Assembly (NCBI RefSeq): GCF_003334335.1
Contig: NZ_QOWQ01000090.1
Source of the DNA: Escherichia coli
GTDB taxonomy: Bacteria > Pseudomonadota > Gammaproteobacteria > Enterobacterales > Enterobacteriaceae
Direction: 5' to 3' (one strand)
DNA: 2,270 bases
The notes under the pieces are model-generated. The model ran no database searches, was not told the origin of the DNA, and worked only from the letters and a program-made list of their open reading frames with translations. Shown here in pieces: positions 1 to 163 of this stretch. A program made the translations under genes and the position numbers. Position 1 is the first letter of the stretch; each line of letters opens with the position of its first letter.

Positions 1-15
1 CTGCTGTTTTAGCAT
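1..15 (-). CDS. Possible 5' end of a downstream late-region ORF of unknown product, truncated by the window edge
   Basis: A minus-strand ATG at 15..13 is preceded by the purine-rich GGAAAAGGGAAAAAGAC, a possible Shine-Dalgarno with about 8-nt spacing. The frame stays open to position 1 (M-L-K-Q-Q...). Only 5 codons are visible, so this is weak. Confidence 0.2.
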
Positions 16-136
16 GTCTTTTTCCCTTTTCCGGTTAACGTGACACACCAATAACTCTTGTCGAAAAAGCCAGCAAGATGAAAGGTCGCTATTCACGACC
101 ACCAGCGCGTTTAACGTCCTGTGCCGTTTTTCGGGC

Positions 137-163
137 ATAAAAAACCCGCCAGTGGCGGGGTTT
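137..163 (-). terminator. Rho-independent terminator (tR'-like) at the end of the short late leader
   Basis: The minus strand reads AAA CCCGCC ACT GGCGGG TTTTTTAT. A perfect 6-bp all-GC stem (159..154 pairing with 150..145) closes a 3-nt loop and is followed directly by a 6-T run (144..139). The upstream AAA can extend the stem by pairing with the U-tract. On the plus strand the same hairpin is followed only by GTTTGCTT, so it is mainly a minus-strand terminator. Confidence 0.7.

Follow-up and report, generated by a model that had tools for sequence, protein, structure and literature searches.

The probable first late gene of a lambdoid Escherichia coli prophage, predicted to encode a minimal winged-helix protein, precedes a candidate structured RNA and a predicted DNA methyltransferase gene

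In phage Mu, the small regulator gene com is located just upstream of the toxic DNA-modification gene mom and activates its translation via an RNA hairpin. Lambdoid phages, including lambda with its 6S RNA and the Shiga toxin (Stx) phages with their StxS RNA (PMC7547250), have a late-control region consisting of the antiterminator gene Q, a promoter over its end, a strong terminator about 70 nucleotides (nt) further on, and the late genes. We analyzed a 2,270-nt stretch of Escherichia coli DNA (contig NZ_QOWQ01000090.1 of assembly GCF_003334335.1; hereafter, the window), which contained late-control elements in the same order. The locus differs from the lambdoid late region in its first late gene, which is predicted to encode a small winged-helix protein and is followed by a DNA methyltransferase gene. 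The small gene enters the window with its 5' end, and all window features of this gene, its leader, and the Q region are read on the minus strand.

In the window, CCCGCCACTGGCGGG forms a perfect 6-bp GC hairpin (159..145), which is followed by the T-run TTTTTT (144..139) and a first ATG at 138..136 (ATG138). From this codon, 46 codons without a stop extend to position 1 (translation, MPEKRHRTLNALVVVNSDLSSCWLFRQELLVCHVNRKREKDMLKQQ), and codon 42 of the same frame is an ATG at 15..13 (ATG15), directly preceded by GGAAAAGGGAAAAAGAC (32..16). An earlier reading made from the letters of the window (the sequence-only reading) had reported the 46 open codons, the placement of ATG15 in the ATG138 frame, and the purine-rich tract upstream, all of which were confirmed. 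Its remark that ATG138 has no Shine-Dalgarno sequence also held, but this codon adjoins the end of the T-run and does not lie inside the hairpin and T-run as it had stated. The open frame by itself is weak statistically, and its meaning comes only through comparative evidence; when the 135 bases following ATG138 were shuffled 20,000 times by mononucleotide, the frame of the ATG was open to the edge in 6.5% of cases and some frame in 17.5%.

Window positions 420..1 were 100% identical to four E. coli chromosomes, and the prophage locus of strain JE86-ST05 (L001; window position = 6421 minus L001 position) was used for extension. The remainder of the gene was found there, beyond position 1, in agreement with the sequence-only reading, which had placed its identity outside the window. 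Beyond position 1, the frame remains open for another 60 codons until a TGA (gene, L001 6406..6603), with no early in-frame stop and with a clear coding signature. In RefSeq, the Prokaryotic Genome Annotation Pipeline (PGAP) gives a 198-nt coding sequence (CDS), WP_000917749.1, which starts at L001 6406, exactly window position 15, and encodes the 65-amino-acid product MLKQQDMTETARVVFNELSVTDPATVGEIAQNTYLSRERCQLILTQLVMAGLADYQFGCYRRLPQ. The CDS is thereby already annotated with the exact ATG15 start, and its family is catalogued though uncharacterized. The features of this end of the window are as follows.

Window 1..15, minus strand: 5' end of the winged-helix gene, first five codons (MLKQQ), based on the PGAP start, conservation, codon pattern, PHROG 331, and AlphaFold2.
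Window 17..32, minus strand: purine-rich Shine-Dalgarno-like tract GGAAAAGGGAAAAAGA, with an AAGGG core at 28..24, 8 nt before ATG15.
Window 16..138, minus strand: untranslated leader from the terminator tR' to the start codon, non-coding by ATG loss, stops, insertions or deletions (indels), and flat codon variation.

The start was compared among 94 related phage or viral loci and 17 intact-cassette loci of distinct Enterobacterales species, spanning Escherichia albertii, Klebsiella, Kluyvera, Pseudocitrobacter, Buttiauxella, Citrobacter, Enterobacter, Mixta, Erwinia, and Hafnia. An equivalent of ATG15 was kept in all 94 loci, with open reading frame (ORF) lengths of 63-67 codons, and also in the 17 further species, each with the purine-rich tract at the same distance. 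Every lineage had an equivalent tract (AAGGT, CAGGA, or AAGGG plus AAAAGAC) ahead of this ATG. Only 16 of the 94 loci contained an in-frame ATG at -123, corresponding to ATG138, and several lineages had upstream in-frame stops at -6, -9, -12, -18, or -21 nt; the stop of phage phiP27 lies at -21 nt although its protein is 98% identical. Leader indels among close relatives measured 1-4 and 10 nt, not triplets, and whole blocks were present or absent between lineages. The ORF showed mean pairwise differences of 0.23, 0.20, and 0.49 at codon positions 1, 2, and 3, with 6904 synonymous versus 2795 nonsynonymous single-nucleotide differences; the 123-nt extension in the ATG138 frame showed flat differences (0.19, 0.20, and 0.18) and contained stops in five of nine alignable relatives. 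Taken together, it is very probable that window 15..1 is the real 5' end of a 65-codon gene with a winged-helix product, that 138..16 is an untranslated leader, and that the gene is the first ORF after Q, the pR'-like promoter, and tR'. The choice of ATG15 over ATG138, already made in the sequence-only reading, is upheld by the PGAP start and by this conservation, and the interpretation given there was essentially right.

Two other starts were weighed against this one. Some phage and metagenome annotations, as well as the PHROG 331 profile, imply a 106-amino-acid protein from ATG138 with the extension peptides MPEKRHRTLNALVVVNSDLSSCWLFR; its frame is open in the window, proteins of this length are present in databases, and the 41 upstream codons match PHROG 331 positions 2-39 (E 3e-6). 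However, the extension is confined to the sub-lineage with the ATG at -123, has stops in close relatives including phiP27, shows no codon periodicity, contains indels that are not multiples of three, and begins without a Shine-Dalgarno sequence at an ATG abutting the terminator T-run. The database proteins and the profile match are therefore attributed to annotation carry-over from near-identical DNA annotated alike, and we regard this product as scarcely credible; the 106-amino-acid ORFs in those records and the profile itself are over-extensions into the untranslated leader. What counts against ATG15 is a second conserved ATG at codon 7, six codons further on and outside the window, which would leave ATG15 in the leader. 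Nearly all loci keep this ATG (Ile in one protein, P0084), conservation and model confidence are lowest in residues 1-6 (mean predicted local distance difference test score, pLDDT, 77 over the first ten residues), and a predicted stem over ATG15, if formed, might hinder initiation there. On the other side, the purine-rich tract has a proper spacing (8 nt) from ATG15 in every lineage, whereas in most lineages codon 7 has no Shine-Dalgarno sequence at a suitable spacing, with AGGA only 1 nt upstream in E. coli and nothing resembling such a sequence in Klebsiella or Phi06_2987. Codons 2-6 vary synonymously (CAG/CAA, CTA/TTA, and AAT/AAC) and are never frameshifted, in-frame stops occur at -6 and -9 nt and never between the two ATGs, and PGAP picks ATG15. 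Initiation at codon 7 thus appears improbable, and ATG15 is the likelier start.

The product of the ATG15 frame matched PHROG 331, whose function is uncharacterized (E 2.8e-37, 127.8 bits), with residues 1-64 on profile positions 35-98 of 111; profile positions 1-34 are a spurious upstream extension. AlphaFold2 modelled it with a pLDDT of 92.6 as a stand-alone winged helix with the order alpha1-beta1-alpha2-alpha3 and a beta-hairpin wing (beta2-beta3). This topology and structural matches to solved winged helices identify a winged helix-turn-helix, and Foldseek showed a fold resembling the DNA-binding repressors MarR, ArsR, and BlaI. Pfam gave sub-threshold matches only, the best being TrmB (PF01978; i-Evalue 0.0046, score 17.2), with similarly weak matches to DprA_WH, MarR_2, and HTH_24. 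TrmB is also the name that NCBI gives to many family members, and family-level significance was not reached. No NCBIfam model reached its cut-off for the small protein, and a sequence search of the PDB returned only a chance match to YraP (E 0.63) and no relative of solved structure. Among 1.84 billion cluster representatives scanned exhaustively with HMMER, only 61 relatives were found; judged from such searches, the family is narrow and confined to Enterobacterales prophages. The protein has only two cysteines (C40 and C59), no CxxC, and no zinc-finger motif, and no characterization of the small ORF (SfV orf47, N15 gp51) was found in the literature. It is very probably a minimal winged helix, and its role as a nucleic-acid-binding regulator is one that we only infer. 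In Citrobacter sp. 18056 (L106 3001-4146), the small ORF continues in frame, from about residue 53, into an unrelated sequence of about 330 amino acids, and the methyltransferase is missing, which looks like a deletion or rearrangement onto a structural gene.

Of the 90 loci whose sequence extended far enough downstream, 88 had a gene for the same methyltransferase directly after the small ORF, and the spacing between the two was held at 147-154 nt across genera. The methyltransferase contains TDPPYF near the N-terminus and FFMGSGS near the C-terminus, that is, the beta-class order (DPPY, then FxGxG), and it also matched adenine methyltransferase models of NCBIfam and solved structures of the beta class. 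It shares 96% identity with the enzyme of phage 1720a-02, and its likeness to M.EcoGII goes through that enzyme, which is very similar to M.EcoGII (PMC5778455). By this sequence relationship, the neighbor is assigned to the M.EcoGII family of non-specific N6-adenine DNA methyltransferases. M.EcoGII itself is reported to act on adenines irrespective of sequence context, both in vivo and in vitro; its constitutive expression is harmful, and the lysogen keeps it silent (PMC5778455). For homologs in O111 Shiga toxin-producing E. coli, a lack of specificity was likewise predicted and no activity was detected (PMC6602927), and a homologous methyltransferase gene was dispensable in phage P840 (PMC10612081). 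The methyltransferase gene is mostly without a good Shine-Dalgarno sequence.

Related cassettes were also identified in more distant phages. In a Providencia phage, Q and the methyltransferase accompany a true homolog of the small protein (hhalign 98.8%), and gp51 of N15 and phiKO2 is a probable distant homolog (hhalign 83%, E 9e-6; hmmsearch 2e-4), arranged in the order gp51, annotated late promoter and terminator, and methyltransferase gp52. In Aeromonas phiARM81ld (L116 1200-1544), the start of the methyltransferase gene is overlapped by a gene for a 71-amino-acid CxxC protein, which carries the annotation of a Com-like translational regulator; this protein has CGNC...CPRC and is not homologous to the small winged-helix protein.

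The spacer of about 150 nt between the small ORF and the methyltransferase gene was more conserved than coding sequence, with a column identity of 80-83%. It contained an RNA element of about 135 nt at L001 6619-6756, approximately 200-350 nt beyond window position 1 and directly upstream of the methyltransferase gene, in which an outer helix (UGGGC/GCCCA) folds around two hairpins and is followed by two more hairpins. In a MAFFT alignment unfitted to structure, 80.6% of cells paired versus 27-45% with slid partners, and nine pairs showed double changes, a number reached by 2 of 500 shuffles. Compensatory pairs of the outer helix were UGAGC/GCUCA in Mixta and GUGGC/GCCAC in Aeromonas, after which a first RNAalifold model of the spacer (UGGGC with GCCUA) was replaced by UGGGC/GCCCA. 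With divergent members included, 29 of 39 pairs showed double changes, and covariation was 0.21 (reached by 0 of 500 shuffles) versus 0.087 when shuffled and 0.04-0.09 when slid, in an alignment that was fitted to the covariance model and hence leans towards the structure. With the covariance model, the element was recovered ahead of the homologous methyltransferase gene in Providencia (86 bits), phiKO2 (52), VHML (48), and N15 (41.5), at the following positions.

L118 1368-1503: RNA element copy of phiKO2.
L117 1371-1503: RNA element copy of N15.
L121 1316-1454: RNA element copy of VHML.
L119 1365-1503: RNA element copy of the Providencia phage.

The match in Aeromonas phiARM81ld was weak (21.7 bits, E 0.002) and lies just upstream of the Com-like gene. 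The element, which occurs whether or not the small winged-helix gene is present, was thus seen in phages of the lambdoid, N15-like, and VHML-like groups from Escherichia to Vibrio, and Rfam 15 gave no significant match to the spacer RNA. These patterns mark the spacer as a candidate for a covarying structured RNA that was previously undescribed. A 33-codon peptide in the spacer (MGGWWV..., L001 6625-6726) was rejected, its frame being interrupted after 16 codons in KpnBHU6 and its stop lost in Hafnia.

Overall, the best explanation, and on balance a probable one, combines a real first late gene with a regulator tied to the methyltransferase. The claim that the small protein is a nucleic-acid-binding regulator functionally tied to the M.EcoGII-family methyltransferase is by itself tentative, being plausible though short of probable. 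Its basis is the linkage of the two genes at a fixed spacing, the poor ribosome-binding site and structured leader of the methyltransferase gene, and the Com-like gene in Aeromonas. The small protein would be made first from the shared late transcript, might act on the structured methyltransferase leader RNA or the corresponding DNA, and could time or limit synthesis of the toxic methyltransferase by analogy with Com and mom of phage Mu. Several points weigh against such a regulator. A winged helix that binds RNA is the exception, not the rule, and this protein is slightly acidic overall, without a dimerization or effector domain. The Com analogy rests on position and on the annotation of another record. 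Two of the 90 loci have the small ORF without the methyltransferase or RNA element, and in VHML, which has the RNA and the methyltransferase, the 4 kb examined contained no small-protein relative; the pairing is hence obligatory in neither direction. Additionally, M.EcoGII shows full activity when cloned on its own (PMC5778455), and catalysis thus does not depend on the small protein. A more specific proposal, in which the small protein and the RNA leader form a two-part gate on the toxic methyltransferase at the head of the late operon, is speculative and rather doubtful; the protein could be a Com-like activator or limiter, or the RNA could sense a metabolite (S-adenosylmethionine or S-adenosylhomocysteine).

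The same observations might instead reflect an independent late-phase DNA-binding factor or a moron-type gene that acts on other phage or host promoters and adjoins the methyltransferase only as part of a shared mosaic module. The likeness of the fold to MarR, ArsR, and BlaI is in keeping with this, as are the persistence of the small gene in the two loci lacking the methyltransferase, the occurrence of the VHML methyltransferase and RNA without the small protein, and the joining of the module to several unrelated Q types at the terminator as one recombining block. Nevertheless, linkage in 88 of 90 loci with fixed spacing across genera otherwise diverged to about 50-70% identity counts against this, in N15-like phages the closeness to this methyltransferase family persists although the gene order differs, and no target site was identified; we consider an independent factor possible, if unlikely. 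An accessory methyltransferase subunit that tethers the enzyme to DNA or modulates its specificity, rather than regulating its synthesis, would also account for the tight genomic linkage, and the top Foldseek matches include winged-helix domains within S-adenosylmethionine-dependent methyltransferases (RedM, PigF, and DsyB). M.EcoGII alone, however, methylates adenines in any context (PMC5778455), and in VHML-type phages this enzyme family functions in the absence of the small protein (none in the 4 kb examined in VHML), which leaves an accessory subunit very doubtful. The Foldseek matches to O-METHYLTRANSFERASE winged-helix domains were rejected as a methyltransferase link, these being small-molecule enzymes unrelated to beta-class DNA methyltransferases and the likeness one of generic fold.

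The regulator tied to the methyltransferase would be produced within a late region whose remaining elements in the window are the following.

Window 139..159, minus strand: intrinsic terminator tR' (terminator scan; 6-bp all-GC stem with a 3-nt loop at 159..145, T6 at 144..139).
Window 214..242, minus strand: pR'-like promoter TTGCAA-17-TATATT (promoter scan, 9/12 matches), overlapping the end of Q.
Window 232..915, minus strand: antiterminator Q gene, 227 amino acids (PGAP; PHROG 304 'anti-termination protein Q-like', E 2.4e-102).
Window 912..1277, minus strand: RusA-family Holliday junction resolvase gene (PGAP; PHROG 34, E 5e-56).
Window 1278..2270, minus strand: DUF968/HNH-type gene (PGAP CDS L001 4085..5143; PHROG 96, E 1.6e-164).

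The DUF968/HNH ORF from ATG 2264 (2264..1278) is truncated by the window, and the RefSeq start lies 72 nt further upstream (L001 4085). The Q gene, the promoter, the intrinsic terminator, and the small gene are located on the same strand in that order; with Q, a promoter-like site, and the terminator directly upstream, the small gene is the first late-operon gene after the terminator, as the sequence-only reading had proposed. By the established lambdoid scheme, it would be transcribed only when Q lets polymerase read through tR'. A hairpin plus T-run equivalent to tR' was found upstream of the small gene in almost every lineage and is annotated as a terminator in SfV. The late-region layout recurs in eight named phages, and the order of Q, terminator, small ORF, and methyltransferase, then lysis genes or tRNAs and stx, was observed in SfV, mEp460, phiNP, phiP27, Hafnia yong2, Stx2a_1447, and a Providencia phage. 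In L001, the small gene is followed by genes encoding the 352-amino-acid DNA methyltransferase, tRNA-Ile, tRNA-Arg, tRNA-Arg, TerB and DUF3927 proteins, a SASA-family esterase, DUF1378 and DUF826 proteins, and a class II holin, the last at L001 12069, 5.6 kb downstream of the small gene. The host element is a lambdoid, Stx-phage-like, stx-less E. coli prophage. The Stx phages phiP27 and Stx2a_1447 have a similar late layout, with stx after the tRNAs; the TerB-family and DUF3927 genes of L001 lie at 7853-8867, after tRNA-Ile/Arg/Arg. A holin or lysis identity of the small gene, one of two guesses of the sequence-only reading, was dropped in view of the soluble winged-helix model, the lack of a holin family match in PHROG, NCBIfam, and Pfam, and the position of the holin; the other guess, a moron, is arguable, with a hairpin plus T-run after the ORF and no sigma-70-type promoter called in the leader.

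The promoter and terminator pR' and tR' would together yield a short terminated RNA of roughly 70 nt, which may be a terminated late leader RNA of the StxS/6S type. This predicted RNA (window ~210..139; L001 6211-6282) had sub-threshold Rfam matches to isrJ and isrK (20 and 16 bits, E 0.4-0.6, below gathering), which are Salmonella prophage small RNAs. Homology to phiP27, 1720a-02, PhiR5_1, and Stx2a phages begins at the tR' hairpin, and their upstream Q modules are unrelated, with a 227-amino-acid Q here and 126-amino-acid Q-like proteins or another arrangement elsewhere. The terminator seems from these alignments to act as a recombination boundary, and a mosaic joint was observed at window ~165..139 (compare L002, L010, L012, and L014). 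An insert of 226 bp lies right after tR' in E. coli LZSFT34 (L009 ~1790-2015) and in at least eight further genomes (hits H6-H14). The tR' hairpin and T-run stand on both sides of it, in two copies that differ slightly, and the insert has its own terminal hairpin and T-run, AAAAGGCACC..GGTGCCTTTGTCGTTTTT. At the other end of the small gene, the hairpin GCCTTCCGCAGTGAAGGC (L001 6590-6617) overlaps the stop codon and is followed by TTTTTTATTT. In other genera, compensatory changes (GCCTCC/GGGGGC and GCTGCC/GGCGGT) preserve its stem, and the T-run is not always present.

The untranslated leader contains two conserved islands.

Window 41..58, minus strand: invariant leader motif AGAGTTATTGGTGTGTCA, consensus AGAGTTAYYKGTRTGTCA (alignments).
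Window 71..77, minus strand: second conserved leader island CTTGCTG (alignments).

Both islands were invariant from E. coli to Hafnia, Erwinia, and Mixta, and the flanking leader diverges. In a pairing proposed by RNAalifold, GUGUGUC (48..42) is able to pair with GACAUGC (18..12), covering the start codon; this stem was the minimum free energy or centroid structure in the E. coli, Klebsiella, and Erwinia versions (three of eight lineages). It was not predicted in all lineages, showed no covariation (both arms being invariant), and had a z no better than -2.1; a start-codon-occluding stem 48..42/18..12 would be a hypothesis only. The arrangement CTTGCTG-N17-TAYNTG (window 77..~50) was rejected as a standard sigma-70 promoter, given that its -10 candidate always ends in G, not T, and the scan made no call; an activator-dependent promoter is conceivable there. 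The motif at 58..41 is no more than a candidate operator for the winged-helix protein. No operator was assignable to the small protein, and no palindrome resembling a C-box was recognized.

These findings concern a gene that heads the transcript carrying stx in many Stx phages and whose constant companion, the M.EcoGII-type methyltransferase, is a widely used reagent. The winged-helix gene and the conserved RNA provide handles on how temperate phages silence a lethal hyper-methylase in lysogens and how it is turned on to shield the DNA of the progeny against restriction. If true, the gating of an M.EcoGII-type methyltransferase by a protein and an RNA would be considerably more interesting than the gene start itself, and the spacer RNA element is the most novel observation, though it lies outside the window.

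In comparison with Stx phages, the prophage has the same tRNA-Ile/Arg/Arg cluster, a nanS-p-like esterase, and a holin downstream, and the stx position is occupied by TerB and DUF3927 genes. The small protein differs from regulators of the MarR, ArsR, BlaI, and TrmB types in its length of 65 amino acids and in lacking dimerization helices and an effector or metal-binding domain, and by sequence it appears to form a separate narrow family. It has no sequence similarity to Z-alpha domains (ADAR1, PKZ, poxvirus E3L, and ORF112), and the fold resemblance is probably generic. Like the C proteins of restriction-modification systems, which control timing, it is a small, presumably DNA-binding protein encoded upstream of a methyltransferase or nuclease gene; C proteins, however, are Xre-type helix-turn-helix dimers that bind palindromic C-boxes in their own promoters, whereas here a winged helix precedes an orphan methyltransferase. 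With gp51 of N15 and phiKO2 (75 amino acids; annotated as winged helix-turn-helix in phiKO2), it shares an N-terminal MTEtA motif, a helix-turn-helix, and a location adjoining the homologous methyltransferase gp52 and the same RNA leader. That homology is weak (hmmsearch E 2e-4 to 6e-3, in a small database), and gp51 lies upstream, not downstream, of the annotated late promoter and terminator. As for com-mom of phage Mu, Com is a CxxC zinc finger and the genes overlap, whereas here a winged helix with two cysteines is encoded about 150 nt from its neighbor; the paired CxxC of the Com-like family is absent, and the analogy is functional only. What the two systems would have in common is a protein of about 65 amino acids encoded upstream of a late, host-harmful DNA modifier, whose gene has a structured leader and a poor ribosome-binding site.

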